Of a stretch of 64,000 nt of DNA, positions 35,661 to 64,000 are shown piece after piece. Made by a program: the position numbers and the translations under genes. The notes beneath the pieces are model-generated. The model was given only the letters and a program-made list of their open reading frames with translations. It did not search any database and had not been told where the DNA came from. This DNA is from Amphiscolops sp. MND2022. Its lineage: Eukaryota. The stretch is taken from positions 78,556,001 through 78,620,000 of the forward strand of contig OZ076409.1 of assembly GCA_964187785.1 (NCBI GenBank). Direction: 5' to 3'. Each line of letters starts with the position of its first letter. Positions within the stretch are counted from its first letter, which is position 1.

Positions 35661-35755
35661 CAAAGAACAATTTCACACCGCAATTTGAACGACCATAAAA
35701 CCGAGCGTACAAAACAAAAATCTTTTCCCCGTGGTGGGTTTTATCTTGCAAAATT

Positions 35756-37406: not shown

Positions 37407-40400
37407 TCAAGTCTCCGAACCAACAAAGTGAGGAATCAAATGAAACCCCTCACATTCCAACTGCTGGAACGTCCGGCCAACATTTTTATATAGAATTATT
37501 TCAATACGCCGTCGGAGACAAAAATAAAAATAATGGCCTTAGCACTCAATTTCTCATAGATACTGGCGCAACGTGCTCCATTATCAACCGTGAGACATTC
37601 ACTGAAATTAACAAAATTCAGCCTTTAGTTGTAACGCCTCTCGAGAAATCGCCTTTAGCTGCTAATGGACACGCAATGCCCATGAAAGGGAAAACTATTA
37701 TTCAGTCTGCGTTTGACGTAGAATATTCTTGTGTGATCGAACACACTGTTTATGTGTCTGATTCCCCCGAGGCGAGAATGAACATTCTTGGAATGGATTT
37801 TTTGGCAAATTTTGGTGAATTCATTAACTTGAGAAATCCAATGCTAATTTTAACGGTCTTCCCCGGCAAATGTGTTAAACTGTCGCCTTATTTAGACAAG
37901 CCTTTTCCCTACTTCTCCCAGGTTAATTCAGTAGAATTGACTCAAGACATCACAATTGCACCGTATTCGACCCGAGTTTTGAGTTTAATTGCTAGAGATG
38001 AAGATAAACATTTGTTCAAACAGGGAACAAGTTTCCGTTTACACCAAGACATTTTAGATACTGGCATTTACACGTATCACGTGTATTGCTCACAAGACGA
38101 GTCGAAATATCCTTTAATGCTGAACAATCCGAACCCGAATAGTATTACTATTCGTAAAGGAATTCTTGGATACACATTGCTCGATAGCGTCCAAGAGACC
38201 TCGCAATTGATGAGTGTCGTTGACAATGTCGCTTTCATTGAGTATCTCAAAACCTCTGAGTCTCAATGGAACAAGGATTTACACGTTTGTTCGACCGAAC
38301 CGTATATTTATTCCTTAACGGAAATTGATTCACGGAAACAAATGGCCGAAAGCGCTATTTCGCAAAATGAACTGGCTACTGATTTCTCCAATGAGGTGAA
38401 ATCATTACAACCGAAAATGCCCAAAACTGCTTCCGATATTAAAAGGAAACAACTCGACGATGAATTTTACGCCGAGTTTAGTCCCGCCGAACGCAACTTT
38501 TTAGAAAAGTTTGACTTTTCTGAATCCGATATAAATGACCGTGAATTACAACATCTTCTCCGAGTTTTAGTTGAAAACAATGACGTGTTTTCAAAATTTA
38601 CTTATGATGTTGGAAAAATCACACAAACATTTCATGTACAATTGAAGAAAAACGCCGAATTGCGAAAACAAAGGCCCTCAAAAGTCCCTCTGCACTACAG
38701 AGACCGACTTGAAATTCTTCTGAATGAACTGCAACGAGCTGGAATCATTCGAGAAATGGGAAATGATGTGGAAATGGATTCCCTATTCACAAACCCTATC
38801 ATCATTTTACCAAAAGGAGATACCGTGAAGCTTGTGATTGACGCACGTTATCTTAACTCAATCACTGACTTGACTAACTACTCATGGCCCCTTGAACCAG
38901 TACAAATGTTACTGACACGACTTGATGGAGTTTATTACACAACGAGTGATTTAGCTTCCGCCTATAACCAAGTACCCCTCACCGAAGATACGAAGAAGTT
39001 GACAAGCTTTATTGTTGGTGGAAAACAGTACATGTTCGAACGAGGATTCTATGGTCTTTGCGGACTACCAAACTTCTTCAGTCGGATAATGACTATTCAT
39101 TTCGCTGAAATGATAGCCAAGAAACAAGTGATAACATACATTGATGATGTTATCTTACAGGCAAAAACCAAACAAGAAATGTGGAATAATTTGGATTCAT
39201 ACTTCAAGTGCTTGAGATCATCAGGTCTGAAAGCTGCACCGAACAAAACAAAACTGTTCTTGAGGAAAGTTCAGTTTCTTGGACACATTGTTTCCGACAA
39301 AGGAATCCAGCCAGTAGCCAAAAAGGTACAAGATTTGAAAAACCTGAAAAGCCCTGAGAACAAAAGAGATGTAATGCGCATCTTAGGAAGTTTAGGTTTC
39401 TACAGCACCTTCATCAAAAATTTACATGTAGATTCGAAACCTTTCTACGAACTTCTGAGAGATGACACTCCATTCAAATGGACAAAAGAGCATGAGAACT
39501 TGTTCCAAGACATAAAAAATAGAATCAGCGAAGAAACCATCTTAGCTGTACCAAACCCAAAGTATCCGTTCCACATCCATGTCGACTCCTCCAGTATTGG
39601 TACGGGATCAATCTTAATTCAAGATTTTCCTTCCGGGAAACGTATAGTTTCCTTCAATTCGCGAGTCTTTACAAAGGATGAACAAAAGATGTCAACGCTA
39701 CATCGAGAACTGTGCGGAATCATTTCTGCTCTACAAACGTATGAGCATTTCATAATTGGATCTCGGCATCCCATCAAGGTATTCTGTGATCACAAGCCCC
39801 TCCTGTATCTATGGGCACGCAAAGGAAGATTATCTCATAGATTCTTCCGCTACCAAGTGATTATCACTCAGTTCACTAATTTGCAAATCATTTGGACCCC
39901 TGGAAAGAATTTAGCGTTTCCAGATTTGCTAAGCAGAAATGTGTCGTTGAAAGATCTCAACGGGCACCAATTGCTTCACAAAGAAATTCCAAAAGATATA
40001 AAGTTCTTCAGCCAAAGTGGACACGAAGTTCAGTATCTGATAGACCACAACAGCCCTGCTGAAAGCGCCAACGATGATTTCTACCCAATTGTTTGCACTC
40101 ACTTGGGTGAAACAAAGAAACTTCACCTGAAAAATGATGGTACAGATCTTATCTGTACGGTATACGATCCAAACTCTCCGAAAGCGCTCTTTGATGTTTC
40201 TGACTCCTTTCGTGAAGGTAAGGACATCAACATCCGACGTAAATGGCAAACCCCACCAATAGTTGTGGAAGCCGACGTCCATGAAAATCATTATTCAGGG
40301 ATTGACTCTGAAACCGACAATAGTGACAATGAAGCTTCTGACGAAGATCCTCTATTGAACACAGAGGTTGTAAATGCATCTAAAGAAGATGTTCCTTTCA

Positions 40401-42541: not shown

Positions 42542-44766
42542 ACAAGGTAGCAGACTGCAAGATCACACCAGAAAACTTGTATGTCACCCCGGCTACTATC
42601 ACACTTTATCAGAAGAACTATCGGACTGATCTGGCAGCAACAATGTGTTCTGTCAAGGCCCATGTCTTCCGCTACAATTGTGGAATGTTTTCGCATTCGT
42701 CCTACGTTCATACTCAAAATAGTATAACGTATGACCTCATCGTTACCCCTGAAATGTGCCGACAGGCATCAAAGACGAACAAAATTAAAATTTCGTCTTT
42801 TAGCGAAAACTTCGATGCCCCAATTGAATTCGATACAAAGAAACAATCGAATTTCAATGATGGACAATCAGTCCGCACAACCATTCATTGCTCAAGTGGT
42901 CAAGTACAGCACTATACCTTCGAGACGTTCATGCAACGTGTGAATTTGACATTCGATTACGGAACCAAAGAGGTTTCCAATCCAAATAAACAAAAATTGC
43001 CATGTCTTTTAATGGAGGGTGGTTGCGAGACCACTACTTTAGACCCATTCGCTTACACGTGGGATACTCCCGAAAACTGCGTGATGACAAAAATCCTCAC
43101 TCAGGAAGCAAAAATGCTCAAGTATCCATTGTCAACGAACAGAAACGAAAACCAATTTTTCCTAATCAGCGAATATAATGAGACTGGCAAAGGAATGAAC
43201 CTCAAAATCAAAGTCTTCCCTGAAAGCTATGAGCTATGTGGGAAACCTGAACGATTGTTCAAAACAAATTTTGAGAGTCTATTTGTGACTTACCAAGGAG
43301 GTTTCGCAATGCCAGGTGGAGAACTACGAACTAAAGAACATGCTTTTAACGCCTACCAATTTTCCATTGACAACTCTAGCCAGGTCTCTTATTCGTCATT
43401 ATCTTTCAGCAAATCAAATGGCCAATGGATTGGTGCACAGCCTTGGCATACCGTCGGCGCGGATGAAATTGATTATGAATTGCACTTGGGAACAAAGTTA
43501 GACTATATAATGTACTTCAATGCGAAGCAATTGAGGCATTCTGAAATGACACTTCTGCAGAGTCAATGTGAACTCGAACGAACTCAAATGTTAACTATTT
43601 TAATGTTAGCAATGCAAAACACAAGACTTGCCGGTTACATGTTAACTGGAAACAGGTCTATGTTCCTTGACACCGATGGAAGTGTCGCATGGTTATACCA
43701 TTGTCCGAAGTTTTTGTCGCCCTTGAAAGTGCTTGATAAATGTTATGATCGAATCCCGATCATGTTTGAACGGTCTACGAAATTTGTAGATCCCATCACC
43801 CGTCAGACTTATGATTTTGCATCCGAGATACCCTGTTTGGGAGATTACACAAATGTGTTTCAACTTGATCTCGAAAATGACAATTCCTGGTACCAACTTT
43901 TACCTGAGCCCATGCCTTTCAATAAACCTTTGTTGTTCAAGCCAACTGAACTTGGACATATTACTCAGTTTCCAACTTTCGACACCAGGCGTGCTGGAAT
44001 GTACACCCCAAATCAAATGAAAAATTTTTGGGATAATGTAATCCACAACTCTGCTTCTGATACATTATTGAAGAAGCTTACTCGGACTATTTTGACTCGA
44101 GGTAACTCAGTTCGAATTTCCGAACCGGGAAACTTGGAACGTCTTTTGAGTCTAAATGATAGACTTCTGTTGGATCACTTGTTGACGCCTTCTTTTTTCG
44201 TCGATAAATTCAAGGAAACTTTTGGCGAATTGGGATATATTATCCAATGTTTAGGAAACTTTTTTGCTTGTTTCCTTTTGGTAAAGTTCGTTATTGATGT
44301 TGTTGTCATTGTCCTCCGAGGACTTGAAATTCGAAAAGTTTCTGGTGCCACTTTTGGTTTTGTCAGAACTATGTTAGGCGCAACTTTTAATTTATTTGTT
44401 CTCTCACTTCAGACTCCAATGTACGAAAATGAGGAAAATAAAAGGATTTCAAATGGTTTCTCGCAGAACCCTGCAGGCAATAGACCTATAGCTGCACCAA
44501 TGTACGAAGAAAATCCGACTCTTTTGTATCCTCAAGTACATCTCTTGAACAATCCGATTGCGATTGGTTCTACTCTTAATGAAAGACGAAGAGCTGAGTC
44601 AAATGTATTAAATCAAACAGGAAATGCTCCTAGTACATTAAATACCTTTTTACAAAATAACGATGGCAATAACAGTTCTGGAAATGCTCCGACTACTGTC
44701 AATGAAAACGCTCCTAGTACCTCAAATAACAACAGTAATGGAAATGCTCCATTACCCCCACCATAA
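42412..44766 (+). CDS. env: Envelope glycoprotein, chuvirus G / class III (gB-like) type
   Basis: 784 aa; N-terminal signal peptide, SHYDC motif, Cys-rich ectodomain, QCELER...AGYML...WLYHC...CYDRIPI...FVDPITR block, transmembrane segment and cytoplasmic tail. Confidence 0.85.
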   Translation: MFYFILFLFPFSCASDDFDNVSKNLFVSHYDCTKMQDNRMYSLNKVADCKITPENLYVTPATITLYQKNYRTDLAATMCSVKAHVFRYNCGMFSHSSYVHTQNSITYDLIVTPEMCRQASKTNKIKISSFSENFDAPIEFDTKKQSNFNDGQSVRTTIHCSSGQVQHYTFETFMQRVNLTFDYGTKEVSNPNKQKLPCLLMEGGCETTTLDPFAYTWDTPENCVMTKILTQEAKMLKYPLSTNRNENQFFLISEYNETGKGMNLKIKVFPESYELCGKPERLFKTNFESLFVTYQGGFAMPGGELRTKEHAFNAYQFSIDNSSQVSYSSLSFSKSNGQWIGAQPWHTVGADEIDYELHLGTKLDYIMYFNAKQLRHSEMTLLQSQCELERTQMLTILMLAMQNTRLAGYMLTGNRSMFLDTDGSVAWLYHCPKFLSPLKVLDKCYDRIPIMFERSTKFVDPITRQTYDFASEIPCLGDYTNVFQLDLENDNSWYQLLPEPMPFNKPLLFKPTELGHITQFPTFDTRRAGMYTPNQMKNFWDNVIHNSASDTLLKKLTRTILTRGNSVRISEPGNLERLLSLNDRLLLDHLLTPSFFVDKFKETFGELGYIIQCLGNFFACFLLVKFVIDVVVIVLRGLEIRKVSGATFGFVRTMLGATFNLFVLSLQTPMYENEENKRISNGFSQNPAGNRPIAAPMYEENPTLLYPQVHLLNNPIAIGSTLNERRRAESNVLNQTGNAPSTLNTFLQNNDGNNSSGNAPTTVNENAPSTSNNNSNGNAPLPPP

Positions 44767-45039
44767 CGTTTAAAAAAAAACGTTTGCTCTTTAGTGAAAT
44801 TTCTCTTACTTAAAAGTGATAAGGCTTCCTGGAATAGATACCACTGTGATTATTGATGTTTTTCTTCTGGTCACAAACATAATGACACAAGCACAAATTG
44901 ACTTACAAACCCTATATAACTCGCTTTCTAAAATTTAGTATAGTCGCCAACTACCAACTACCAGTTATTCCAAGTTATCCTTTGTTGTTCTTTAATTATC
45001 AGCTTAGAATTTAACGACACTTAATTACTCCTACCCACG

Positions 45040-46599
45040 ATGTCTGATGCTATCGACCTATTCGAGCCTGAAGGTTTCATCCCTGATGACCTGCGTCCTT
45101 CTAATGTAACCTTTAGGTCCCGGAAAACAAAACGGGTTAAACCCTGTTTTCAAAAACATCACAACCAGGCTAACAAGCGATTAGCCTCTACCGACCCTGA
45201 GCCAAATTGGCCAAGAAAAGCTACTAAATTCGAAAATAATGTGAATTTCGACCCTAACCGCCTGTCAAAGAGACTCGGTGATGGGAAAATTAAAGGCCCC
45301 TCGTGCGTGTCAATGAGACTCGACGACGGGTTACCCAAAGAAAAAAATTGGTTTCCAAGCCTTAAAGAAAGGCTTGAAATCCAAAAATCCCGCGAAAATA
45401 ATGTGGACACTGACGACCCCAAATTCATCAAATTCCTAAAGTATGGTATACGGAAGGACCATAATGAATGGTTCCTTGCCACTCCTAAAACAGGGATTGA
45501 AATTGTCAACAAAAAGTTGAATTGTTCTATTGTTATTCCCCCCGACAATTGCCCAGCCATAAAAGTTACTCTTCCGAAGGACATGAACCAATGGAGGTTA
45601 AAAGACCGTCTTCCTGAAGAAAGGAAGTATGTAGTTTATAATCATCAACTTGACTCCATGATAAAGGCCCCCTTTGGTGTTATCACCGCGTTCCCTGACG
45701 ATCCAAACCCTCTTTTCAACGATAATACAAGTACAATCAGTTCGTCAGATAGTACATCCTCCTCCAGGGAAGTGTCCGCCGATAATCCCCATATTCCATC
45801 CAATACTAGATCCACAGGCAATGCGACTACACAAACTGGGAATGAAGAGTGGACCGATACACCTGATACCAATCTTACCGCTGCTCTTTGGAAAACCGAA
45901 TTCGCAATTGCCGAATTTGAACAACAAAATCGCAGCCTGAACATTGAACTAGCCAATTTGAAGAATGCTCTCTGCTCTGCCAATCGGTCACGAGCAATGG
46001 CTAAAGAGAGTGCCAATCGAGCTGAATTCAAGTTAGAAATCTCCGAAAGAGTAACATCAGACCTTTTCGATGAGAATAAGGAACTGAAAAGCCAAATTGA
46101 AGAAGCGACCTCCAAAGCGGAGTCACTTCAAAGTGAACTTTTAGAATCAAACAAGACAAACATCCTCCTAAAGGAGAAACTTGATGCCTTCGATGTGGCA
46201 AATAAACGATTCAAGGAAATTCTTGATAAAAAGGACACTAAATTAAAGGACCAAACCGAAATTGACAAGCTGGTCAAACAACTGCAGACAATGAGAGTCG
46301 AAATCGACATTCAACGAGCCGAGGCTATTCAATTGATCCAGGCAGTAGATGCAAAACAGTATGAAAAGCTGGAAAAATGCTTACACGCCCTGCTAACCCA
46401 CGCTGATCACTGGGATTGGCAACAATACGAAAAGTACTCCATTTTTAACGTAAAACGAGGAAATGTCAAAACCCGACTTTCAACAGTCTACTATCCCATT
46501 GCATACAATTTTGACAAAGACCCCGAGTGGAAGAATAAATGTACTCGATTACCCTGGCCCATAAATTTAAAGCAAGTGCCAACTGGAAGGAATAATTGA
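45040..46599 (+). CDS. Accessory ORF4, coiled-coil protein of unknown function
   Basis: Intact 519-aa ATG ORF between env and the 3' LTR; E/K/L-rich heptad region at about aa 285-440. Confidence 0.8.
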   Translation: MSDAIDLFEPEGFIPDDLRPSNVTFRSRKTKRVKPCFQKHHNQANKRLASTDPEPNWPRKATKFENNVNFDPNRLSKRLGDGKIKGPSCVSMRLDDGLPKEKNWFPSLKERLEIQKSRENNVDTDDPKFIKFLKYGIRKDHNEWFLATPKTGIEIVNKKLNCSIVIPPDNCPAIKVTLPKDMNQWRLKDRLPEERKYVVYNHQLDSMIKAPFGVITAFPDDPNPLFNDNTSTISSSDSTSSSREVSADNPHIPSNTRSTGNATTQTGNEEWTDTPDTNLTAALWKTEFAIAEFEQQNRSLNIELANLKNALCSANRSRAMAKESANRAEFKLEISERVTSDLFDENKELKSQIEEATSKAESLQSELLESNKTNILLKEKLDAFDVANKRFKEILDKKDTKLKDQTEIDKLVKQLQTMRVEIDIQRAEAIQLIQAVDAKQYEKLEKCLHALLTHADHWDWQQYEKYSIFNVKRGNVKTRLSTVYYPIAYNFDKDPEWKNKCTRLPWPINLKQVPTGRNN

Positions 46600-46811
46600 A
46601 AGCCCCCTATAAACTGCTCTCCAACCAAAACTGAAACTCTTTTAACTTGATAATTTGCTTAAACTTATTTAACCTTTAAAATTTCTTTATCTTAACGTAA
46701 ACTTTACATAAGTTTTACCCATTTTCCATTATACCCATTTTATACACATTATATTTATTAATTGATTTGGTATTACGACTAATGCAGTCTTCTCTGTCAA
46801 CTGGGGTGAGT

Positions 46812-47318
46812 TGTAGCAATGCGCTATTTCTAATCTAGTTCATTTTCCCAACAGAGGAAATTGACTCAGAGACATAATAATTTCCAAAGCGGAATTATTA
46901 GAGCATTTTAATTTCTAAGCGAATAGCAACGCGCTAAAAGGAAATTGGAATTCCCAAATTCCTTTAATGCTCAGCCAATAGGAAAAAGCCACGCGAAAGT
47001 AGAACTGTCCTGAGCTGGAAAGAGAAAGACAGGTACCAATTCCAACGCGGAACACTGAGAAAGCAACAACTCTTTTCTCTTCTCTCAATTTTCCTTCTCT
47101 CTTGCTCTCTGAAAATCCCCCAAAATTGAAAGGACAAAGAGTCCCAAAATTGACAGAACATTATAAATTTTACAAGTCAGCGATTTGCAGGACTTAACAA
47201 AATTCTACTTACTGTAAACCTCCAGTTTAAATTTATCTTCCTTTTCGTAACACTTTTTGAGACTTATTGCTTAGGTTAGAAAGCGAGTACTAAGTAACCA
47301 AAACACCGGTTTACAACA
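46812..47318 (+). repeat. 3' LTR (507 bp), preceded by a short purine tract GGGGTGAG
   Basis: Near-identical to 35137-35644. Confidence 0.97.
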
Positions 47319-50003: not shown

Positions 50004-50570
50004 TCAAAACTGGACCAAATTGTAAGAACTATGACTCGTGGTATCTCTTAAGTCACCTACAGATCTTGAATCTTTCTTTGCAATTTTTATTTTAGGCCCG
50101 GGTGCGCTTTCCCTGTTCTCCTGACTATTTGGAGACGAACTGGCCTCAGTGTCCCTGTGTCCCATAGAGGACATCGAGTTTGCAATATTCTGGATTTCTG
50201 GAATAACTCTTTCAGCTATAGCTGTCGATATAGCTCTATTTATTTGGCTATGCATTATTGACATCATAGATTCCATTTCTTGAGACAATCTAAGATTAAA
50301 CTCACTTGAAAAGGCTTCAAAGGATTGCCTGACTTCGTTTTGCCTCAAAGGTTCATTTTCATGTAAGTAATCTCTAAACTCATTTTCATGGTACACGTTT
50401 GTATCACCGTCCCCGTGGGCCGATGACTGATCTATTGCTTCAGCTAGTTCTCTTTCAATGGGATTATTATTTTCATTTCCCAGCATCACATCTAGGTTAT
50501 CATAGTCGGACAGCATGTCCATTTCTCTAGATCTCCTAGCTTTGGCTTTCTGACGTCTAGTAGAAGGCAT
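50004..50570 (-). CDS. LTR-embedded ORF, probably the N-terminus of gag, truncated at the element end
   Basis: ATG ORF MPSTRRQKAKARR (gag-like basic start); TATA-like run at 50719-50727 upstream; the last five codons come from flanking DNA. Confidence 0.6.
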   Translation of the reverse strand: MPSTRRQKAKARRSREMDMLSDYDNLDVMLGNENNNPIERELAEAIDQSSAHGDGDTNVYHENEFRDYLHENEPLRQNEVRQSFEAFSSEFNLRLSQEMESMMSIMHSQINRAISTAIAERVIPEIQNIANSMSSMGHRDTEASSSPNSQENRESAPGPKIKIAKKDSRSVGDLRDTTSHSSYNLVQF

Positions 50571-52998
50571 AAGAGATTATTGCAAGAGGCAAGAATTTAA
50601 ATTAATATCTTGGGCTTGCAAAGTGAAAATGAACGGGTAGTTTTAATAAACAGTTCGCAACAGTAACGCATCAAAGTATCATCAAGATAATTCTGTCCCC
50701 GGGGCCACCAGTCCCGGTTATATATATTTGAATTTGCATGACACTCAATAAAATGGTGGTCATAATCTAAAAATAGCCTTTAGGGCTTTCTAAATATAGC
50801 TACAATCTATAAATAGCAGGCAACGTCAACATTACATCATGTAGATCAAAGGTCCCTCTTGGCGGCAAATATGGCAGCGGGACCATGAGTCCGTTAGGAC
50901 AAGCAACTGCTTACATGCATACTAAGCAACGTACTACATGTATGAAATACATATTACATGTATGAAATGCTTACTACATGTATAGATAGTAATTTTACAT
51001 ATATTCTAAACTAAATATATTGCGCAAATTACATATGAAGCAACACCATCAAACTAATTCTAAAATATTAAATCAGTCCTTTGAGGGCCAATAGCGCCTT
51101 TTATCAGTTATCAAAAGATTAATCATTACATAACCAGTACTGCTAGGTAGAATTACACTCTCAATTAAAGCGCGGACTCAGTGTCCAATAGACTGGTACA
51201 GCCCAGCGCTTTATTAGCAGGCGGCATATAGCTGTCTAGTCCTTTAATTCTATTAAGCTAGCACGAGTAAAGGTTACATAACACTGCGCTATGATTGGAT
51301 GACGAGTTAGTCGGACTTGCGGACCAAGGCGACAGGCAAGAAAACATTTGAACGCGTTTCCTTTACCTGTACGCCTTGGTGTCCAATTAACTCGTATTAA
51401 TGCATAGAATTACATAATATAACTTGCACAAAATGAAATATATAGAGTTTTACATGACTTTTTAGAGCAACAATAATAGTTTTCCTTGTAAGTTTTCTAA
51501 TTTAATGGAAGGGTGAAGGGTTCTGCTTTCTTGTAACTATGGCAGATTGAGTATGTGTTGCCATCACAGGCGGACGCCTGGGACACTCCCCCTGGAATTA
51601 GCATAAAACAGCCCACCTTCATTCCTTCCAAGAAAGCTAGTCGTCTCGCGTTGAATTGCTCGGCAGATTCCCCTCGGACGGCCGTCTTGTGCAGATAATC
51701 TATGACCGCCTCGTCCTGAATCTGTTCCACAGATTTTCCACATACGAGACAATCTGTGCACCCTGTAATATACGGGTTATCTGCTGCGGTCGGCCCACGG
51801 AAGTGAATACCACCTTCGTGTCGTTGGGAGCTGCTAGAAGTGGCTTCCGCGGTTATCCTCCAGTCGCCCGTAGGATATTTATCGATTGCTGGGGGCGACA
51901 TAGGTGTGTCGACCATCGGGATCAGTTGGCTGCATAAGTTAATTGGGTGGTCATTTCTAAGCCGTGAGTCCCTCGCAATTGGTCCTCTGCCCATTTCCAG
52001 CTCAAAGTACCCAGCGTCGAACATCGGTCCCGGCACATATGCAAGCCTGGGAGTAGTAGCGCGAGTCACTTCTTGCTTTCCTGAAGCTGAGGGGATTTGA
52101 ATTCCTGCTGAAGTCGATGGCAAGTCCAGTTGTCTTTCCACACATTGGGCCAAGAGGGCCATTTCATCGTCATCAGACAGGCTCTCTAAGTCATCCACGG
52201 ACGCCCTGCTTGCGCACTCTATGTCGTCGTCACTAGAGATGTAAATGACACCGTCTCCCGGGGCTGCTCCTTGAAAATCTTCAGGATAATACTCAGGGGA
52301 TTCCGAGTCAAATTGACTTGCAAGGAATTTATTCATTATTGCTTTTTTGGCAATCTTGGAAGTTATTAGTTTTAGGTTTTGAAGTTTGATAAGCAGCTGA
52401 ATTTCGAGATTGAAACTGAAACAATGGCGATTTCTTCCTCCGTCGACTAGCGGGATTTTCTTTTCAGTTTCCCGGGGTTTTGCCCTTCCCGGCTCACTAA
52501 ATCCTCAATAACAAAATTCCTTTTCTTCGGCATCTTTCAACTAGCCGCTCGGTCTTCTTTGAAAATGCCGACTGAGGCTTTGTTGACTTACATCAACTCT
52601 ATCAACACTTCCATATTAAGAGCGTCGCTTCAAGTGTTTATTAACACTCATCAAGCACTTAAAAGTTTCAAGAGGGTGAAGCTATGGCAGACGGCCACGC
52701 CGTCCATCAGCGTTTCTGATCAACCAATAGGAATGCAGCAAAATTTCTCTTGAGTAAAAATGGCTTCCCAAGGTCGTAAATCCATATAAGGAATAATATA
52801 AAATGACCTGAAATTAAATAAAATCCTGGTAAAATCATGAAATATTTAATAAAATGGTAAAGTTTCGAAATAAGATAAATGGAAGAGTGTAGATATCGCT
52901 GGCAGACTCTATCCACATAATAGTGTAAATTGTAAATATCTTGTAAATTTGACACCAAATTGTATAGCCACGAACTCCAACTTTGACATCTTGTCACA
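50021..52998 (-). repeat. Putative ~3-kb 3' LTR
   Basis: Minus strand: purine-rich GAAAAGAGAATTGGCAA (53015-52999), then TGTGAC ... CTTACA; cannot be confirmed without the 5' LTR. Confidence 0.5.
51497..52336 (-). CDS. Accessory ORF (279 aa), acidic N-terminus, SIM-like VIYISSDDD and CxxCxxC cluster
   Basis: Intact GC-richer ATG ORF, sense to pol; minus-strand AATAAA near 51210. Confidence 0.75.
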   Translation of the reverse strand: MNKFLASQFDSESPEYYPEDFQGAAPGDGVIYISSDDDIECASRASVDDLESLSDDDEMALLAQCVERQLDLPSTSAGIQIPSASGKQEVTRATTPRLAYVPGPMFDAGYFELEMGRGPIARDSRLRNDHPINLCSQLIPMVDTPMSPPAIDKYPTGDWRITAEATSSSSQRHEGGIHFRGPTAADNPYITGCTDCLVCGKSVEQIQDEAVIDYLHKTAVRGESAEQFNARRLAFLEGMKVGCFMLIPGGVSQASACDGNTYSICHSYKKAEPFTLPLN

Positions 52999-53610
52999 TT
53001 GCCAATTCTCTTTTCAATTCATTATTTTCAAATTCTTTCTAGTTACTCTTTGTATTATCGTCCAGTATTTAATCATCTCTAGTCTTTTAGTCTTCTAGTC
53101 GTATTTACTCCGTATTCATTTGAAGTAGTCATTTGTAATTTCTTCCGATTACGTCTTTTTGTGGATTTCTTGGGTCATCCTAGGACAATCGACACTGAGT
53201 CCCTTTTGCTAATTCATCTCCAGCAATCTTTCTTGTCCTTCATCAAAGAAGAATTTGTCTTCTCCCTACAACTGCTGCTGTATTGTCACCAGTTCAGCTT
53301 CGTCATCCTCCTCTATTGATCGCTCAGCTTTCAATTCAGTGACCACCAGTCTAACTGTACACAGTACTCCCTTCTCAAGACATCCTTCTTTGCATTCAAA
53401 CAGGTCAGTAGCTTTTCAGGTTTTGTTTCTATTTTAGTATTGAATTAATCTGAGGCTTGATCAGGGCTCTCATTTCATTCACGTACTTCCTGTCCCATAA
53501 CACAAGTGTTCACTTGAGTTCGAAATATCTACTTCCGGAAGATTTTTAATGCGGTAATGGACTCTTTCTCAGGAAGTTATCCGCTTGAGTTTATCTCTTT
53601 CTGTTTAGAC

Positions 53611-56600
53611 ATGTCGTCCGAAGAGCAAAATGATATTGTTCCTGCCACCGCTACTGCATCCATGACTGAAGAAGAAGTTGCCATTCCCGAAGAAGCTGGT
53701 ACCAGTCAGGCCACTTCGATCCCTGTAGACCCTGAGTCCACACAACTAGTGCCGCCAGGAGATAATCCTGATAAGCCTGCTCCGACCCCAAGCCCTTCTA
53801 CGGATGAAAGCATTTCCGCTTACATTGACCGTCAATTGCAGACTTTGGGTTGCCAGGGCCTTGGTCTTGACATCTCCTTCTTGCCTCCTACCACATCTGC
53901 CATTGTAGACAATGTACTAAAGCCAACCGCTGAGAAAGCTTCTGAGTCGGAGCCAATTCCCCAGGTCACGACTGGGTCACAAGACAAGGAGTCTCCTGAG
54001 GCTGAGATCGAGCGGGGCAATGATGCTGTCAGTGAAGCTGGATTTTCCGTCAACAAGGCGGATTACTTCCAAACGGATACCAGCGACGCTGAAGAATTAC
54101 TTGATAGTTCAGGTGCTGAGACCGTCAAGGAACCTCCTTTCTTGATTGCACTGGATGCGCTAAGCTCCACTGGGACTGAGACCCATGAGAATGTTAAGCC
54201 ATCAACCTCGGCTGAGTTACCTGGCACATCTTCCCCGAAGCTCTTCAGTCCTACCAGGCCTTTATCTGCCTCTGCTCGAACGCTCATAAATCAGCATTTC
54301 AATGAGACCAACCCGTGCATCCTCCCGGTAGGCCATGCGACCGTAGCCTTCAATCAGGGGCAAGTCCATTCCATCTTGCGTGCCGTCTCCACGGAAACCA
54401 TTACTTCTTCCCTACACCAAATGAAGAACATGCTGGAAGAAGCGATCCGGGCGGGAATTCGCTCCCAAGGTACTCCTCAAGGATCCGGGAAGCAGCGAAT
54501 CAAGATCTTCCGTAAGCAGAGCGGCAGCCTTGGATCAGGTGCGGAAGACAGTGACGTTGGGACTGAGGGGTACACTAGCGGAGCCCTCAGTTCAGAAGAT
54601 GAGTTTGTCATCAATTCTCAAAGAGCTGGCAAGGATCTGAGCATCAATCCCCCTCCAAGTCCTCCAGATCAAAGTTCGACATCAACACCTGGCCCATCAT
54701 CCGCACAACAAGTCCCTAGTCCAGGATTCTGCTCAACTGACTATGAGCCTCTAGCCACATTGACCACTGACCAAGCTTCTGTCTCAAGTCCACCTCGCAA
54801 ACGTCGTCGGCTTCCAGGACGCACAGGCAGAATAATGAAAGAAGCCTATTTCAAAGGAATTCAGTGGACTCGGACATTCGTCACCGGCCCCCTTGACCCA
54901 GAACACAACAAACATAAGTTCTACTGCCAGATATGTAAGACGAACGTTTCCATTTTCTCAAAAGGAGCACGGGAGATTGTCCGCCATTTCCAGTGTGAGT
55001 CGCATTTCCGCAAAGATCAGCGCTGGAGATATGAGCACCTAAGGAAGAAGGACAAGGTGACTGGCCGGACTGTGTACGAAGTCAGAGGGAAGAAGGGCCA
55101 ATTGTTGACTCCCTTAGAACTTGAGAAAGAGAAGCCTTTCTTCATGCAAGTTCCTTTGGTTGAAACTGGCAGCAGTAACCCCTTCTACGAGGATCATATG
55201 GCTGGCCTGGGCTCCATCGCTGGGCAGGAGGAGATCAGACTGTGCGTCCAAATCTCCATGGTTGCTCTCTTCGCTCCTCGTTGTGGAGATCTAAACGTCC
55301 TTGAGTCGCTATGGTCACAGATTGGCACTGTTACCAACCATCAGAGTCTGTTCTCTCCTTACGATTGGGGCTCCTCCAAACTGACAGTAAGTATTGGCGA
55401 TTTCTAGCCTCAGGGTCCTTTAGCCCTAACGTAGCCCCGATTCATTTTCATCCTGGTTAATTTTGTTTTAGACGATCTTTCATCACATCTTCCTCTGTGG
55501 CATCGCTGACATCGCGTATCAAGTCAGTGTCACGGGTCAGTACTCTCTGGAGTTTGAAATGCGAGGCACCTACAGCTTTGTCTCGATCCGGTTCTGGAAG
55601 GGCGAATCCCTCAATGTCGTCCGTTTGCTACGATACCGGACTGCTTCAGAGCCTGCAGCTGGTTTCCTGTTGGTACTTTCCCGCCTCTTGTCCGTCCTAT
55701 CAACACAACCTCAGATTGTGAGCGTGTCTGGGTGTCCTGCAGAGGTGATTCCTCTTCTTGAACGTTCTTGCCTCTTCCAAAAAGGGATTGAGTACCCTTT
55801 TCGATTTGATGCTCTTTGTCTGCCGGACCTGATGCATGAACGATGGGGCAGCGTGTTTGGCACTATCAGCTTCTTCTCTCAGTTGAAGTTTCTGATTACA
55901 TTCTTGGACGGTTGCGGTGGACAGCTTTGGGCCGCCCTAATGCCAGAATTCGTTAAGGTAAGGTCACTGTCCGTAAGACTGTAGGTCCAGTTTTGAATTG
56001 CCTCCAATAAGCATGTTGATTGTAGGCGATGACTACCTATCACCTGGAAATTGCCGCTGTACCAGCCATATGTTCGGAACTGATTGCGAACTGGAAGTCT
56101 GTGCACCAACATTTGACGAAGATAGCACCACCTCAGGTCCACCAGGGGGTTAAAAACAAGCCCCAAAGCCTCGAGTGGGAAATCATAGCTGATGATTTCT
56201 TCACCATCAAGCTGGAGTTCTTCGCACGAATTGTCCGCGATTGTTAGTATATTGGTTTTCCTCTTGTCTACGGACCTCATGGTCCCAGTTTCTCTTACCA
56301 CTATTTGAGGCTCATGCTAGATATAGTAGATTGACACGCTAGGTCTAATGGTGTCATAGGGACCCTTCAGGATGGTAATGTTTTGTTTTCCAGACACCAA
56401 GAGCTTCGAGAGTCAGTTTGCACAGCGAAGGGATAGTGGCTTCTACACCTTCCGAGAGTTCCATACTTTCATCCGCAAGTTGGCAGGTCGAGCACTACTT
56501 CCCAGACACGTGCCTGATATCCTGGACTGGAAGTCGCTGGGCGATTTGCAAGGACAGAATTGGCGACAACTGTCTAACCGAGATTTCTTGAGTCGCTTGA

Positions 56601-57544
56601 AGCTCAAAGAAAATTTGGATGCCGCATGCCATGCTCGTGTCAGGAGAATTTATAGCGAGAAGCAACTGACGCCTGAAGAGACGGAGACAGCAGCTGAGGC
56701 CATTCGGGACGATTTCGCCACCAAGGCCCGAGGTTACCTCGTCCATCTTTTGAAAGTCTTCCTTGCCGACATTAGCCTGAATGCTGGTATCGTAAGAGGC
56801 CTGGGCAGTTTCGATCCAGTAGCCCTCCTGAGTCTGCCGCTTGAGCAAGCCACATATTGTTTCTCCGCTCTGTACAGATCCTTTAGTTTGCGAGGCTGGT
56901 TAGAGAATTCCCCAGAGACTGATGCCCGAGACGAGTACATCGATTTCGTGGAGTTTTTCCGCCAAGCCAACTCTGGAGTCAAGGATACCCCAGAGGTCTT
57001 CACCGACATGGTAGCCTTTCTGATTGGTATGCCTGAATTGAAGTTGCGGAAACATCTGTTTTACATCTTCCAGTTGAGTTGTCTGTGCCTGACTTCTAAG
57101 TTGCCAGAGCTCCCAGCCATCAAATTCTCTGGAGTTGATTGTAATGATCCCCGAAGTAGACTTTTCGATGTCATCATGCCTGCACAGTCTTACCTAGCTA
57201 ATGTGGCAAATTCAGTGGCTGTGTGCACTACAGAAGCTTCCCTGGGTACCTTCAAAGATCTGGAATTCCGATTCAGTATTGGCAACGTCCCAGGAGACCC
57301 TTGGTCACACGTAGACAGTTTCGGCAAGGCTAATTTGCATAAAACCTTAATCGCAGTCTACAAAGCTCTGGGCAGGAGTGTCCGTCCTGACATCGAGTCC
57401 GCTTCCAATTCCTCGTCCAAAGAAGGGGGGAAACAACGTAAGCTGTCCCCTGGTAAAGGCAAGAAAGTTGGCTTTCGGGCAGCTGGTGAAACTGAAGCCG
57501 CAAAGTCCAGTGATGCGAACGCTCCTGGAACTTCTAAATCTTAA
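53611..57544 (+). CDS. Spliced antisense gene, ~1209 aa; BED-like C2H2 zinc finger, probably hAT-transposase-derived; exons 53611-55386, 55472-55957, 56026-56242, 56394-57544
   Basis: Three GT-AG introns with matching phases 0, 0 and 1 join four ORF-track fragments into one 3630-nt frame; FYCQICKTNVS...RHFQCESH finger; PPRKRRR NLS; AATAAA at 57722 and 57750. Confidence 0.87.
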
Positions 57545-57780
57545 ATGTACAAAGAGTACATTTGTTTCTAGACTGTACTTGTTGTAAACTGCTTTATATT
57601 TATTTCTTCTTTGTTGCTTGTTTGCGTGCCTTTGTATTATTCGCCACTGAGTCTCTCTTTTTGTATATAGTTAGTTCCAGTAATCGATAAGAAAAATCAG
57701 TCAGAGTAGTCCCAAGTAAAAAATAAAAGTCCTCAAGGGCTGGAAGTGAAATAAAGGGACTGGTAATTCAAGTTTTCTGA

Positions 57781-60700
57781 CTAGTATCTGTATTCATCAG
57801 TAAAGTTGGGGGCAGGGTTAGGTCGAAGATTGTATTTCCCTCCTCTAGGGCTCGAATTTTCATTTGAATTTCCATTTTCTGATATTCCGGGCACGGTAAT
57901 ATCTGCGCCTGTGTTTGAAACGTTTGCCGTATCTTTTAAATCATTAGTGACGTCATTTTCATTCTCAGTGCGCTGTGACGTTTGAGTCGGGGGGGGGGGG
58001 GGGCGGTTCGTCACTGCTATTGTTCTCTCTCGGGGATATTTCGTCCTCGGTAACGTCATATTCTGTCGTACGCTCATTGTAACTTTCATTGCTGACGCGT
58101 TCGTTCTCGGTGACGTAATTTCTTGTCGTGCGCTCGCTGCAGCTTTCATTGCTAGCGCTTTCCTCGTCAGTAACGTCATTGTCCGTATTAGTGGACTCGG
58201 CGTCCGTCGGCCGGCGTGTGGCCACATCTGTCCAATTTTCCTTCCTCGGTTCAAATAAGTCGTACTCAAAATCTACTTCCCATGAGATAGTGTACAAATC
58301 GTCTTGCGGGATTACTATCTCATTGTCGGGTTGTAATTTTTCTCCATCGTATTTGTCCTCTAAAGGGGCATTCGGGACGAATTTCTTTAGTCTAATGCGA
58401 TGAAGTATTTGAGTTTTATTTGTATTTAGACGACGGACAATATAATTGTCGTTGGACAGTACTTTCTGAATGACGAATGGTCCAATCCACCTGTATTCCT
58501 TGAATGGAATTTTTGACGCCTGACTGTCCGCTTTAGGCTGTAGAACAAAACAGTAGTCCTTTTCTTTAAGCGGGGCAGCCTTTGCCTTTCGGTCGTAATA
58601 GTCCTTATATTTCAAATAAGACTGCATTATGTTCTTTTTTGTTTGATCTATGAGGATTTGTGTCCTCTGCTGTACTTCCTCCGCAAATTCTGTAGTTGGC
58701 ATAAAATTTTTATTGGGGTTATTTCCCAATTTGTGGTCTAGGACGTTATAGGGAATCCGGCCGTGGAAGACTTTACTCGGTTCACATCCAATGCTAGAGT
58801 GGTATGTAGTATTGTAGTTGAGTACTGCTAATGGTAAATATTTATGCCATTGGCGTCGATATTCCCCTGAGGCCATTTTCAAATTTGTTTTGAGTGAGGC
58901 ATGCGTCCTTTCGAGTTTGCCAATTGTTTGCGGGTGCTTTGTAGTAGCGCATTTGAGTGTTATACCCAAAATTTGAGTTATCTCAGCTATGATGGTCGAT
59001 GTAAATGCGGACCCTTTGTCTGTGATGAGAGTTGTTGGTAAATATGAATGTTTCGTCATGATATCAATTATCACCTTGGCTACATTCGTGGCTGTTGCCT
59101 CAATTAGCGGGTAGGCGAATAAGTACCTTGAGAATACATCTATAGCCGTCATCACCGTCTGGTATCCGCCACTAGTCGGTAAGTTTGGTAATAAGTCTAT
59201 CTGCATGGCATCTTCTGGACCAAGGTCCCATTCGGGCAAGTTCAACAATTCTGGTGTAATTGTATTATTTGGGACTCTTTTGTCTCTGGCGCACGTTTCG
59301 CATCCCTCTACCCATTTTTTAACGTATTTTGCTATGCCAGGGTAGTAATATTTTTGGCGGATCTCTTGCAGCATTTTAGAGATGCCAGGATGTCGATGTG
59401 CCGTGCCATGTATTGCTTGCAGTAGTTCTTTCAACAGGTGCTTTGGCAGTAAGATTTGGTGGTATTTGATTTGTCCCGTTTCGTCGTAATACTGTCGGGT
59501 CACTATTTCGTCCTTGAGGACTATACGGTCTAAATTATTTAAATAATGTTTATACCGAATGTCCTGCTGAAGGATTTCTTCAGAGTATTCTTCATTTTGA
59601 ATTTTTGCTTTTAAATGAAGCAAAGTCGGATCTTTAGATTGTTCTAATAGTATTTGGTTGGTTCTACATAGTTTCTGGGTGAAATTGGTAATTTCATCCA
59701 CTACATTTTCAGATATAGTATCGATTTGGATGACGGTCTCGTCGACCTTGAGTCCTGCTTTTGATTGTCTTTTCCTTTCCCAAATTTGTTCTTCTGTTTC
59801 ATTGTCTTCTTCTGTAAAGAACACTTGTTCTTCTTCAGACACGCCGGCTGATTGGACATTAACTTCAATGGGTTGGGTTTCAACGTCCGCTCGGATTTTT
59901 AGGACTAACTTTTCAGTGGGGTCCATTTCCATGCGGGACAGGTAGTCCGCCGCTGTGTTGTTTTTGCCTGGAATGTGCGCTATAGTGAAATTGAACTGAA
60001 TGACAAAGTCACACGCGTTCCATAATGGCGGCGGTATTATTTTAGTCTGGAAGAACCTTGTGACCGATTTGTTGTCTGTGAGGATAATCACCGGCTTAGG
60101 TGTGCCCCAGAATATATGTCCAAATTCTTTGAAGGCGTAATAGATGGCTAAAAATTCCTTCGCATAAATTGACATTTTAAGTTGTGAAGGAGTAAAAGTT
60201 TTTGAACCATATGCAATAGGCGCATAGGATTTCTTGGTTGAGGTAAATTTCTGATTTGGATCATCTTCAGTAAGTATAGCATATCCGGCTGCTGTAAAGC
60301 TAGCATCTGTCATCAGGACTAGCTGTCGATTTGGCAAGGGCTGCCTAAGGGCTAGCTGGGTGCATCTGTCCAAATCTCTATTGATCTCGTTGAATTGTTC
60401 AATCAGTTCCGTTGTGACTAAGACCTTTTCGTCCTTCTTTAATAGTTGAAAGAAAGGGACTAATTTTTCTGATAACCTCGGTATGTAGTTTCTATAATAA
60501 TTAAGGAATCCGAGGTAACGTTGTAAGGCTTTTTTGGATTTTGGGAATTTCGTTTTTTCTAGGAATTGTGTGACTCGTTCCTTCTGGGGCTTGACACCCT
60601 CAGGGGTGATTGTCCTTCCTAAGAAATCAATCTCAGTTGCTCCGAAGTGGCATTTATGCATCGTTAATTTCAATCCAGCCTCTCGGATGCATTCGAATGT

Positions 60701-62935
60701 TGCTCTGAGATTTTTAATGAGATGCTCCGCGTCGTTGGCCGCGATGCCAATATCATCCACGTATTGGGCACATTGATCGGCTTTGATGACACGGTCCAAA
60801 TATTCTCTCATAAAACTGGAGAATGCCGATAAGGCTCTGCTGAGACCTTGGGCCAATCTTCGATATGCGAACGTTCGGCTGGCAAAGTTGAAGGCCAACA
60901 TCTCTATAGACCGTTGGTCCGCCATTTGAAGGCAGTGGTACGCTTGCGAACAGTCAAGCTTACAGAAAAGTTTCTTTCCGGCCATATGTTGTGCAGCGTC
61001 CGTTAAGGTGCTGACTGGATGGTTGTTGTTGATATAATCATCAGAAATGAGATTGTTGATCTTCCTGAGATCTACCAGTAGTCGTAGTTTCCCATTAGGC
61101 TTCTTTTGTGCAAAGATAGGGCTAGCGTACTTTGAGAATGGTAATGTTGTTATAATACCATATTTGTGTAGTGACGCTAATTCGACCAATATGTCCTCTT
61201 TTAAATTGACCGGAGTTGGTAAGCTCTGGCTGTAGGCAGGAGAGTCGTCCTTCGGGGTCAATTTGACCGTGAATTCCTCATTCATACCGATGTCAAACCT
61301 ATGACGGGCAAATATGTCGTGAAATTCGACTAATAGTGCTTCTATCTGTTTGATTTCATGCTGTTGTAGCATTGAGTCCTTCCAGTCAAAGTTACTGAGG
61401 AATTTTTGTCGAGATTCTTCATTGTCTTGTGGATTTAGTTTTTCTGCTTCTTGCAGGTTTCGTAATTCTCTAAGAATTCTCTTTTGTATTGGAGTATGGG
61501 ACTTTTCGTCCCCTGGCTTTTCGGGTGTTGGAAACCAGTATTGTTCGTATTGGTCATTGTTCCTGTTGGCTTTGAGAAGACTGCTGATATAATAAATAGC
61601 ATCTTCTTCATTTTCATTGAGTAGGTGCCAAGTGGACACTGGGTCTATTGGCCTAACATGTTTCATTTGCTCTGGAGTCATCACAGAGAAATTCGCTATG
61701 TGCATCCCTTTTTTGAGTTTAAAGGGCTGATCTGTGAAGTTGTTGACATGGATCCTCGTAGTCCCTTCGTCCAATGTGACTATGGCGGCACAAAATGTTA
61801 TATCATTTTCTTCATTTAGAAGGTCACTGGGTTGTAAGATTCCAGTGACAGCGTTTTCTGCATAAATTTGAGATTGGATAGGGATGATTGTACGTCCATT
61901 TGGGGGAATCGTTATATCCTCGGGGTTGAGGATAGGTTCCATCACATTGGAGTACTTATGGTCAGCTGTTTTCAATTGCATCGAGAAGAAGGGAAAGTTA
62001 AGTATGCCTTGGCGCATATCTAGGACTGTGTGGTTTCTTTGTAAGAACATAAGTCCAATTATGGGGCTGGATAATTTTTCCATCACTATGAAGATTTCGT
62101 GGAACTCTATGTCCCCTACTTCGAACTTCAGTTCTACTGTACTCTTCGGAGTTTCCAGGTCTCCATTTGCGACCATAATTTGGAATGACGGGGCAGGACC
62201 CTCTTTCACTATTGATTGGGGTGCAAGTAGCCGTATTTTCCTAAGGTCAGCTTCTGGTATCGCACTGGAGTGGGCCCCAGTGTCTATGAGACCATCTAAT
62301 GTTAGTTCTCCAAAGTCCATTGGGAAATATAGCATCCGCCTTTTGATTTTGAGGCCAAGGTTGGTGGAGAGGGGAACGTATGACGGTTCTCCTTGTTTTT
62401 CCACTAAAATGTGCAAGAAGGCTGTTTCGTCTAAAAGGCTGTTGGGGCCTTGAAAGTTTTCTTGCTCTTGAGTTTCCTCTAGTTCTTCTATCAGTGCTTC
62501 GGAATTTGGCTGCCAAAGTTCAATGAGGGCTCTGGATAGTTTGTTGTCCACTATCGGGGGATCATCCTCGTCGTCCGTTGGTGGATATTCGTCTTGTCTA
62601 AACTGGAGTTTTTGTCTGTCGTAGAGTTCGTCGTCCCAATACGGGTCTTTGCCGTAATCAGGATCGGCGTATTGAGGGTGATAATCTTCGATCAATGGTA
62701 AGGGACGGAATTGAGTCTCGAAGTCTTTAGTATAGTCAATTTCGTAAAATCGGTCTGGGCGATCATTATGTACTATTTTATAAGTTCGAATACAGGCTTT
62801 TTCCATTTGTTGCTGCCAGACAACAGTGGGAATTCCTTTTGTATCCTTGATTGTTTGGCTGTATTTGATTATTGGAGGATCTGAAATGACATATTGTCGA
62901 ACCGACATATAGTCATGTATTTGGAGTCGTGGCAA
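57781..62935 (-). CDS. pol: Pol polyprotein PR-RT-RNase H-IN, with an apparent indel in the G15 run (57989-58003) near the C-terminus
   Basis: LIDTGA; LDCSQAYH and YVDD; TDAS/AKEF/TDNK/ADYLSR; HHCC; QID/TDKG/GKLE DDE; GPF; the other frame ends GKYNLRPNP...Y stop at 57781. Confidence 0.95.
58030..58180. repeat. 60-bp (20-aa) tandem repeat in the pol tail, about 2.4 copies
   Basis: DVTDEESASNESCSERTTRN / YVTENERVSNESYNERTTEY / DVTEDE. Confidence 0.8.
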
Positions 62936-62937
62936 AA

Positions 62938-64000
62938 TTAGTTTTTTGAATCAGATTTTTTAGTATTGGATTGGCTTGAAGTAGCCGTTTCTGGGTCATT
63001 TGCTTTTTTAGGCTTTCCTTCGGAGTCTATAGCATTTCGGTCATTTTGTTCTGTCTGCATCCTTTTGGGTCGCAGGTGGGCGCCAGCGCCTTGCCAGCAT
63101 CTTTCGGTTGGGTGGTTCTTTTTGCCACATGTGTCACACGGTGGGTAAGTTGGACGCTGAGGTTTTTTACCGTCTTTGTCCTCCATTTCCTTTTTCTTCT
63201 TGAGTTTCGGGCAGTTTTTGTAATAGTGACCCGTCGCTTTGCAGTATGAGCATTGGGCGTCTTTATTTGTGTTGATATCATTGGACAGTAAGTTGTTATG
63301 GCTCGTGGACGCCGAGGCCATAGTGGCCATTGGCAGATCATCTGACTCTTCTAATGCATTGAGTTCCAGTTCTCTTTCAAGATGAGCTACTATTTCTTCA
63401 TACGTGCCGTTCTCCAGACGGGCCATGTTGACAGATCGTTTCAGTTTTGGGGGTAATTTCGCGTATAACAAGCTGTCAATCATGCTTTTAGCGTTTTCCC
63501 CAAATGCTTTTTCTGCACCTTGGTTCAGTTCTTCCAAGAAGTCTGGTAGTTTCATTGTACTTGGATCGAAGGTCAATCGGTGCCATTTATGCTTTGCTGT
63601 TGCTTGTGATTCCGGTTTGACATATTTCCTCCGGAATATGACCAGTACGTCCTCGAGAGTTTGACGGTTGATTGAGTTTATGTTCCTGAATGTCTGTAAT
63701 GCTCCCTTTCGTAGCAAAGAATGAAAGTGATTAATTTTCATTTGTTCTGTCATTGTGGGCTGCATTTTGATCATCGTATGGAACAAGTCCTCAAAGAGCT
63801 CAAATTTTTCACTTTTCCCATCAAATGTCATCGGGGTTGTTTGTACGGGTCTGATGGTCATAGATTGCGGTTTGTTTTGCAAATTGACCAATACGTCGGC
63901 TAGTCTATTAAACGGGTCCTGAGGAGGTTCAGGAGCCTCTGGGGCCGGGGCTGGCAGAGTCGTGTCCAGAGAGATATTGTGTGTAGATTGTTGTCTCTCT
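62938..64000 (-). CDS. gag: Gag (partial; frame open to the window end) with two CCHC knuckles
   Basis: CSYCKATGHYYKNC and CDTCGKKNHPTERC; no stop between 63999 and 62941. Confidence 0.93.
   Translation of the reverse strand, partial: ERQQSTHNISLDTTLPAPAPEAPEPPQDPFNRLADVLVNLQNKPQSMTIRPVQTTPMTFDGKSEKFELFEDLFHTMIKMQPTMTEQMKINHFHSLLRKGALQTFRNINSINRQTLEDVLVIFRRKYVKPESQATAKHKWHRLTFDPSTMKLPDFLEELNQGAEKAFGENAKSMIDSLLYAKLPPKLKRSVNMARLENGTYEEIVAHLERELELNALEESDDLPMATMASASTSHNNLLSNDINTNKDAQCSYCKATGHYYKNCPKLKKKKEMEDKDGKKPQRPTYPPCDTCGKKNHPTERCWQGAGAHLRPKRMQTEQNDRNAIDSEGKPKKANDPETATSSQSNTKKSDSKN
62941..62947 (-). promoter_or_regulatory. -1 frameshift slippery site A AAA AAC
   Basis: In gag phase directly before TAA; pol lies in the -1 frame. 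Confidence 0.85.

Follow-up and report, generated by a model that had tools for sequence, protein, structure and literature searches.

A spliced antisense gene without catalytic residues, likely derived from a hAT transposase, in a Ty3/Gypsy retrotransposon lineage of Amphiscolops

Introduction

The DNA studied here, called the window, is a stretch of 64,000 nucleotides from Amphiscolops sp. MND2022 (assembly GCA_964187785.1, contig OZ076409.1, positions 78,556,001 to 78,620,000 of the forward strand). Its right end is occupied by a Ty3/Gypsy long terminal repeat (LTR) retrotransposon that lies on the minus strand. Between the integrase and the 3' LTR of this element two genes stand head to head, the sense open reading frame ORF3 and a long antisense gene, here called the cargo. 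Where does a gene of this kind come from, and what does its protein do for the element that carries it? The initial annotation had read the product as a hAT-type transposase that lost its catalytic residues and was domesticated by a retroelement as a DNA-binding regulator or anti-silencing factor, analogous in concept to plant VANC proteins. The reading favoured here, which is held with about even confidence, is that the cargo is a spliced antisense accessory gene, likely hAT-derived and without catalytic residues, and that its product is a nuclear, DNA-binding helper that serves the whole lineage in trans.

Results

Structure and conservation of the cargo gene

The gene and its immediate surroundings contain the following features, all on the plus strand of the window.

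53485 to 53556, plus strand: conserved non-coding block with ACTTCC motifs, directly 5' of the cargo ATG
53557 to 55386, plus strand: cargo exon 1, with an 18-amino-acid (aa) first peptide, an S/P/T-rich acidic arm, a stretch like a nuclear localisation signal (NLS), a CCHH finger and helices after the finger; second ATG at 53611
54925 to 55005, plus strand: CCHH zinc finger with ligands C439, C442, H459 and H465, kept in 42, 41, 42 and 42 of 43 rows
55472 to 55957, plus strand: cargo exon 2, with predicted RNase H-like strands and helices
56026 to 56242, plus strand: cargo exon 3, with the conserved W777
56394 to 57544, plus strand: cargo exon 4, an all-helical region (FD motif, LSCLC, P1089, D/E1107) and a basic tail
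57722 to 57755, plus strand: two AATAAA poly(A) signals, 3' of the cargo stop

Residue numbers count from the ATG at 53611. From this start the four exons (53611-55386, 55472-55957, 56026-56242 and 56394-57544) join into 1209 codons with no internal stop, and the three introns are GT-AG introns of 85, 68 and 151 nt. Starting instead at an upstream ATG of the same frame, at 53557, lengthens the protein by 18 conserved residues with the pattern MDxFxGSxPxxFIxFxL. Of 39 anchored copies, 25 have an open frame from the equivalent ATG, which is the sole nearby start in most second-clade copies. Judged by these alignments, 53557 is the likelier start.

The motifs quoted in the initial annotation all occur in this one spliced antisense frame. 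The NLS-like PPRKRRR is at aa 394-400 (54790-54810), QYSLEFEMRG...VSIRFW at aa 615-634 in exon 2, LGSFDP at aa 963-968 and HLFYIFQLSCLCL at aa 1047-1059. The interval that had been assigned to the transposase, 54820-57130, lies inside the gene, but the gene extends past both of its sides (53557 or 53611 to 57544) and PPRKRRR falls just to the left of it.

The splice sites are conserved. Among 50 close copies, the window counted, GT..AG is kept at 46 of 47, 47 of 48 and 50 of 50 alignable junctions, and the intron lengths vary out of frame. In 43 loci from many families, introns of 64-192 nt occupy four positions in all. Exon 3 of the window lacks an intron, after 56160, that is found in most other families. 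Exact intron-less variants occur at three of the four positions: one in the window clade (seven loci and the window), another in five loci and the third in L107. These precise fusions confirm three junction positions independently of RNA data. The introns would survive retrotransposition because the gene is antisense on the RNA that is copied, and the rare precise losses suggest that spliced mRNA is at times reverse-transcribed and recombined back into the element.

The protein is under strong constraint. Against 14 diverged copies, in pairs of shared ancestry, the ratio of nonsynonymous to synonymous substitution (dN/dS) is 0.05-0.07 for aa 405-1140, at a dS of 0.67-0.84. The N-terminal 400 aa, which had been described as disordered, are indeed rich in S, P, T and E. 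They are not featureless, since they hold conserved parts (the 18-aa first peptide, a block at aa 218-290 and a TSGA motif) and have a dN/dS of 0.12-0.17. A chance frame or a pseudogene is ruled out by the dN/dS values and the conserved splice sites. In L101, L121 and L033 the cargo gene is tandemly duplicated, in whole or in part, inside single elements.

Distribution within and beyond the genome

Searches of the same genome returned 7,492-10,331 first-look candidates, and each search scored 103-130 of them. By these counts the lineage is highly amplified. From the candidates, 101 loci were fetched on the basis of cargo similarity. Besides the window, the integrase is on the strand opposite the cargo in 99 of these 101 loci and on the same strand in none. 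The remaining two have no integrase in the fetched stretch; one is a tandem duplication and one a shortened copy. This pattern bears out the view that the cargo is antisense and fixed in a lineage of LTR retrotransposons. No stand-alone cargo is present among the 101 loci, and thousands of candidates lie outside this sample.

Homologues also occur in public data. For exon 1, each of the 120 homologues listed is an ENA protein that has no name and no Pfam domain. Exon 4 has 438 public matches at an E value of 0.001, and the best 150 of the 438 are 85-418 aa long. A weak search through 7,999 candidates turned up no exon-4 homologue of greater length. One public homologue of exon 4, P0204, is 26-31% identical to its best matches in the Amphiscolops genome and also lacks the ERxFS motif of hAT transposases. 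The dead form is thus old and probably not restricted to this assembly.

Exchange of the cargo between elements

With a length of 8.07, the tree of the cargo is five times as long as that of pol (1.56; 36 rows). Among 630 pairs, 17 have a proportion of synonymous differences (pS) below 0.15 in reverse transcriptase (RT), and in 12 of these 17 the cargo pS is above 0.5. The window and L085, for example, have an RT pS of 0.06 and a cargo pS of 0.62. The cargos of L093 and L100 are 0.57 identical, with identities of 0.96 in ORF3 and 0.96-0.98 in the LTR, and L110-L112 compared with L114 and L120 have 0.65 in the cargo and 0.92-0.94 in the LTR. The converse is found in L114 and L117, where the cargo is 0.90 identical and the LTR 0.59, against a background of 0.55-0.6. 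In these comparisons the cargo is exchanged like a cassette, tied neither to pol nor to the LTR. Assembly chimeras are ruled out as the source of the swapping, as the pattern repeats in several copies (L110-L112 vs L114 and L120).

Finger, fold and ancestry

The finger is near-invariant while the remainder of the protein falls to 31-37% identity. It has no zf-BED match in Pfam; the only match is to zf-C2H2_ZN292, below the cut-off. Neighbours of zf-C2H2_12 and zf-BED type in the Atlas, at 0.77-0.78, are a lead only. In hAT transposases, according to the available text of one study, the ligands of the N-terminal finger are CCHH or CCHC (PMC10368747).

The finger and exon 2 were modelled with AlphaFold2 on the natural frame of L085. 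The mean predicted local distance difference test score (pLDDT) is 47.7, and most of the exon-2 core is at 50-70. In this low-confidence model exon 2 has the order three strands, helix, strand, helix. Among 350,542 chains searched with Foldseek, Hermes transposase is at ranks 1, 2, 3, 5, 6, 10 and 17 (best E 4.1e-3, probability 0.72), and the matches after Hermes are other RNase H-like proteins. VIA-align places the model in the RNase H-like superfold (Z 5-7, root-mean-square deviation (rmsd) about 3, 73-120 residues). Exon 2 is thus predicted to form an RNase H-like core. The named Atlas neighbours, again a lead only, are clusters of GTF2IRD2, ZBED5 and FAM200 type at 0.76-0.78.

Several results weigh against a hAT ancestry. 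The model of finger and exon 2 is of low confidence, as its mean pLDDT indicates, and includes 28 residues that are encoded by an intron. Hermes is not in either VIA-align top 50, and the longest alignments are to the Mutator-family transposase of ISCth4. The model of exon 4 is confident and nearly all-helical (pLDDT 85.5), and it matches no solved transposase. There is no hAT Pfam match on any cargo exon or on 84 rows of exon 4, and sequence searches of the PDB with the cargo gave nothing. Profile hidden Markov models (HMMs) of the cargo miss all 50 hAT loci of the same genome. With hhalign, the comparison to 98 Tip-clade hATs has an E value of 0.17, and block-shuffled controls give 0.088-0.7. 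In this alignment, which is not significant, the first two strands, the place of the second Asp, W777 and E1107 appear in hAT order.

Other searches were also negative. A comparison with an Ac-type hAT profile by hhalign is not significant, and tblastn of the cargo exons against 30 hAT loci found nothing significant. Atlas matches of exon 4 are all at 0.85 or lower and are mutually unrelated, and a viral library gave nothing at E<=0.001. Searches of the genome with PF14291 and PF18658 returned no match, controls included, despite the Tip-type hAT in L128. A complex prediction for pieces of exons 2 and 4, with alignments unused, scored 0.00 and is uninformative. Taken together, descent from a DDE transposase is very probable. 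Descent from a hAT transposase in particular is likely, with an RNase H-like core and Hermes at the top of the Foldseek matches; the assignment made in the initial annotation is significant in no test.

The genome also contains hAT transposases of its own. L122-L125, L140 and L141 have long open Ac-like frames, and L128 has a broken Tip100-like frame. None is detectably related to the cargo.

Catalytic state

The catalytic places were set by motif register and not by structural superposition. At the likely place of the first Asp, aa 621, the rows have E (20), A (18) or T (3), and the neighbouring E619 is kept in 40 of 41 rows. At the likely place of the second Asp, aa 678, they have S (23) or T (18). 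Neither place is conserved as Asp, in agreement with the loss of catalytic residues proposed earlier. At aa 1107, 35 of 77 rows have D, 28 have E and 14 have another residue; Tip hATs keep E in 97 of 98. This is the best candidate for the place of the last catalytic residue, at a predicted helix start 18 residues past a conserved Pro.

The MULE (Mutator-like element) and hAT transposases share a C/DxxH motif 15-45 aa after the second Asp and a conserved Trp upstream of the catalytic Glu, according to the available text of PMC5499845. In the cargo, H714 is kept in 36 of 42 rows and lies 36 aa past aa 678, and aa 711 is D in the window and variable elsewhere. W777 is kept in 41 of 42 rows, and is equivalent to the hAT Trp by register only.

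The cargo has no ERxFS, as had been noticed, and PF05699 (Dimer_Tnp_hAT) matches 0 of 84 rows. The place of the missing motif is perhaps aa 1107, and not directly past LSCLCL. Terminal inverted repeats (TIRs), also reported as missing, were not found: 52400-58000 contains 38 inverted pairs, of which the longest has 29 nt at 72%, and among the 25 listed there is none that convincingly brackets the gene. The cargo has no 8-bp target-site duplication (TSD) of its own, and sits inside LTRs with a 5-bp TSD. On these grounds the cargo fails as a working hAT transposase. A nested DNA-transposon insertion is ruled out by the missing TIRs and by the same site in every family.

The block upstream of the gene

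The block at 53485-53556 is likely a promoter or a protein-binding site, to judge by its conservation. It contains the palindrome CTTCCGGAAG (53532-53541), which is common to 11 of 12 family representatives and absent from shuffles. ACTTCCGG is carried by 33 of 44 loci. No covariation was found in the block (0 of 6 pairs compensatory), which fits DNA sites and leaves an RNA structure unsupported. We take the ACTTCC motifs to resemble host ETS sites, a lead that tells against the favoured reading in that the block need not be a target of the cargo. The BED domains of Hermes bind AAG(T/C) quasi-palindromes and then AT-rich DNA, as stated in the accessible part of PMC10368747. By this preference the cargo finger may also target the block, again as a lead.

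The carrier element and the rest of the window

The carrier is intact. It has LTRs of 1565 bp with 5 differences, TG..CA ends, a 5-bp TSD, a primer-binding site (PBS) and a polypurine tract (PPT), and it is young. Its features are as follows.

50021 to 64000, continuing to 65641 past the window, minus strand: Ty3/Gypsy LTR retrotransposon of 15.6 kb, with LTRs, TG..CA ends, TSD, PBS and PPT
64077 to 65641 in window numbering, beyond the window, minus strand: 5' LTR; the right end was fetched as L031
62941 to 64000 in the window, minus strand: gag, a 564-codon frame that starts inside the 5' LTR and overlaps pol in a different frame
57965 to 62950, minus strand: pol, a 1661-codon open frame with protease, dUTPase-like domain, RT, RNase H and integrase
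51497 to 52396, minus strand: sense ORF3, which encodes about 300 aa including a cluster of Cys and extends over the PPT and the start of the LTR
50021 to 51585, minus strand: 3' LTR, whose distal ~550 bp (50021-50570) correspond to the first ~185 gag codons

In a Pfam scan, the pol domains are in Gypsy order (protease, RT, RNase H, integrase). The dUTPase-like domain lies between protease and RT at pol aa 343-425 (PF00692, barely above the cut-off). The gag frame starts about 185 codons inside the LTR, so the PBS falls within gag. The 3' LTR holds the gag start in 18 of 20 extended loci.

ORF3 is present in 20 of 20 extended loci by tblastn and has no Pfam match. It ends inside the LTR and travels with the LTR start, not with the cargo. 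It could be the family-specific factor. The 700-bp non-coding stretch before ORF3 (52400-53100) has 71-75% identity among first-clade families, and its coding neighbours are near background identity in the same families.

Elsewhere in the window, a second LTR element lies on the plus strand at 35137-47318. It has 508-bp LTRs that are 99.4% identical, gag, pol, a coiled-coil frame and a frame for a Monjiviricetes-type fusion glycoprotein (PF24664, E 6.8e-41). Tandem repeats are found at positions 1-6800, 15900-17600 and 21500-31100: units of about 2.3 kb that contain inverted repeats of 219 nt, a satellite of 185 bp and units of 1.5-2 kb.

Discussion

A possible mode of action

Under the favoured reading, integrated copies would transcribe the cargo from an internal promoter of their own, the block at 53485-53556. 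The transcript would be spliced and translated into a nuclear protein. Carried by the scaffold of an inactive transposase, its near-invariant CCHH finger would bind a site that all families share; the palindromic block ahead of the gene and the conserved LTR tip are the candidates. The long acidic arm and the short conserved peptides in it would attract chromatin or transcription factors of the host and so keep the elements expressed. The cassettes may be exchanged by template switching between co-packaged RNAs at conserved flanks. A DNA-binding regulatory role of the protein, as first proposed, is therefore retained here as a suggestion.

Alternative explanations

The comparison with VANC is where the earlier proposal departs most from the data. 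An anti-silencing factor that is specific to its family and recognises a motif of the cognate element would account for an accessory gene that is fixed in the element and has a DNA-binding finger, and a protein divergence five times that of pol (8.07 vs 1.56) is what an arms race would give. VANC, however, is active on its cognate families alone, by way of a short motif of high copy number in the element, according to the available text of PMC6719617, and in the non-coding parts of the window element no 7-9-mer exceeds 20 shuffles. The finger is almost identical across families, and near-identical LTRs carry very different cargos. The exchange of the cargo independently of pol and LTR, together with the lack of a high-copy motif, argues against the family-specific form and for a lineage-wide factor in trans, and we regard a VANC-like factor as improbable. 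Self-restraint or exclusion is nearly as improbable. Here the protein or its antisense RNA would repress related elements and the swapped variants would be compatibility types, as the many deeply diverged variants on near-identical backbones might suggest; antisense transcription can also make double-stranded RNA with the element RNA, as the accessible text of PMC7264820 states. The strong amino-acid constraint implies, however, that a protein function is required, and the lineage is highly amplified (7,492-10,331 first-look candidates). An action at the integration or particle step is somewhat less remote, though still unlikely. The protein would bind cDNA ends or the pre-integration complex and serve nuclear import or chromatin tethering. 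Transposases ancestrally serve to bind ends, families with differing LTR bodies share a conserved LTR tip, the protein has a basic NLS-like stretch, and nuclear import is among the roles suggested for plant antisense frames in the part of PMC7264820 that is available. Yet the cargo recombines freely against integrase, and a long acidic arm with short motifs would better suit an adaptor to transcription or chromatin.

The remaining alternative concerns the donor rather than the function, and we give it perhaps a minor chance, above that of any other alternative considered here. The cargo may descend from a Mutator-like DDE transposase with a helical insertion, or from a captured, already domesticated, intron-bearing host gene of the ZBED or GTF2IRD2 kind; in the latter case the taming would not be the work of the retroelement. 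The longest VIA-align matches are to ISCth4 (98-120 residues, Z 5.2-5.7, rmsd 3.4-4.3), four intron positions fit a host gene, and no relative inspected, even at 27% identity, has ERxFS. MULEs and hATs have C/DxxH and W in common, as far as the available text of PMC5499845 goes. Against this, Foldseek and the Atlas both favour hAT-type proteins, and no stand-alone copy occurs among the 101 loci, which are a small share of the thousands of candidates.

Relation to known systems

The host-domesticated hAT proteins of the ZBED5, FAM200 and GTF2IRD2 group keep a hAT-type scaffold without mobility. Unlike in this group, the keeper of the cargo is a retrotransposon, and there are many exchangeable variants and not one host locus. 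In the available text of PMC10368747, Hermes and other hATs are like the cargo in having an N-terminal CCHH finger, an RNase H-like core, a helical region with a conserved Trp and the same motif order. Unlike them, the cargo has no DDE triad, conserved C/DxxH, ERxFS, PF05699, TIRs or 8-bp TSD; it has a 400-aa acidic arm and is mobile only inside an LTR element.

In plants, Ty3/Gypsy elements have antisense frames between pol and the 3' LTR, namely Retand TRP28/Transposase_28 (PF04195), maize Grande gene23 and RIRE2, as described in the accessible parts of PMC11963269 and PMC7264820. These resemble the cargo in position, orientation and lineage-wide fixation, and also in the internal promoter and the nuclear or DNA-binding role that have been proposed for them. 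Grande gene23 is a precedent for an antisense frame with its own promoter (PMC7264820, available text). The cargo differs in having no PF04195, a length of 1.2 thousand aa, 3-4 introns, a CCHH finger and an RNase H-like core; the word 'intron' is absent from both texts (PMC11963269, PMC7264820). VANC of the Arabidopsis VANDAL elements is likewise an element-encoded accessory protein suspected to help against the host, but it belongs to a DNA transposon and is family-specific through a high-copy motif, and the cargo has neither sign of this specificity (PMC6719617, in the part available). The planarian Burro/GYPSM1 elements are, like the carrier, large animal Gypsy elements with extra protein cargo. 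Their extras are polyprotein domains or an upstream frame, and 'antisense' and 'hAT' do not occur in the accessible text (PMC6431247). No account of an LTR element that keeps an inactive DNA transposase as an antisense gene with introns came up in the literature search, which could not reach most Repbase entries or subscription papers.

Significance

Hosts are known to domesticate transposases. In this lineage, one class of mobile element appears to have domesticated the enzyme of another. The origin and function of the antisense extra frames of plant Gypsy elements have so far been unknown, and here the origin of such a frame is partly readable. The exact loss of introns illustrates how a gene that is spliced can persist and evolve on the antisense strand of a retroelement. 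Natural recombinants, with the same LTR and different cargos or the converse, and the conserved palindrome allow direct tests of accessory-gene function. It is conceivable, at slightly under an even chance, that an LTR retrotransposon lineage tamed a hAT transposase as an intron-bearing antisense gene and that its pool of far-diverged, exchanged cassettes acts as a DNA-binding counter-defence or activator for the whole lineage, which would have aided the expansion of the lineage to thousands of copies.

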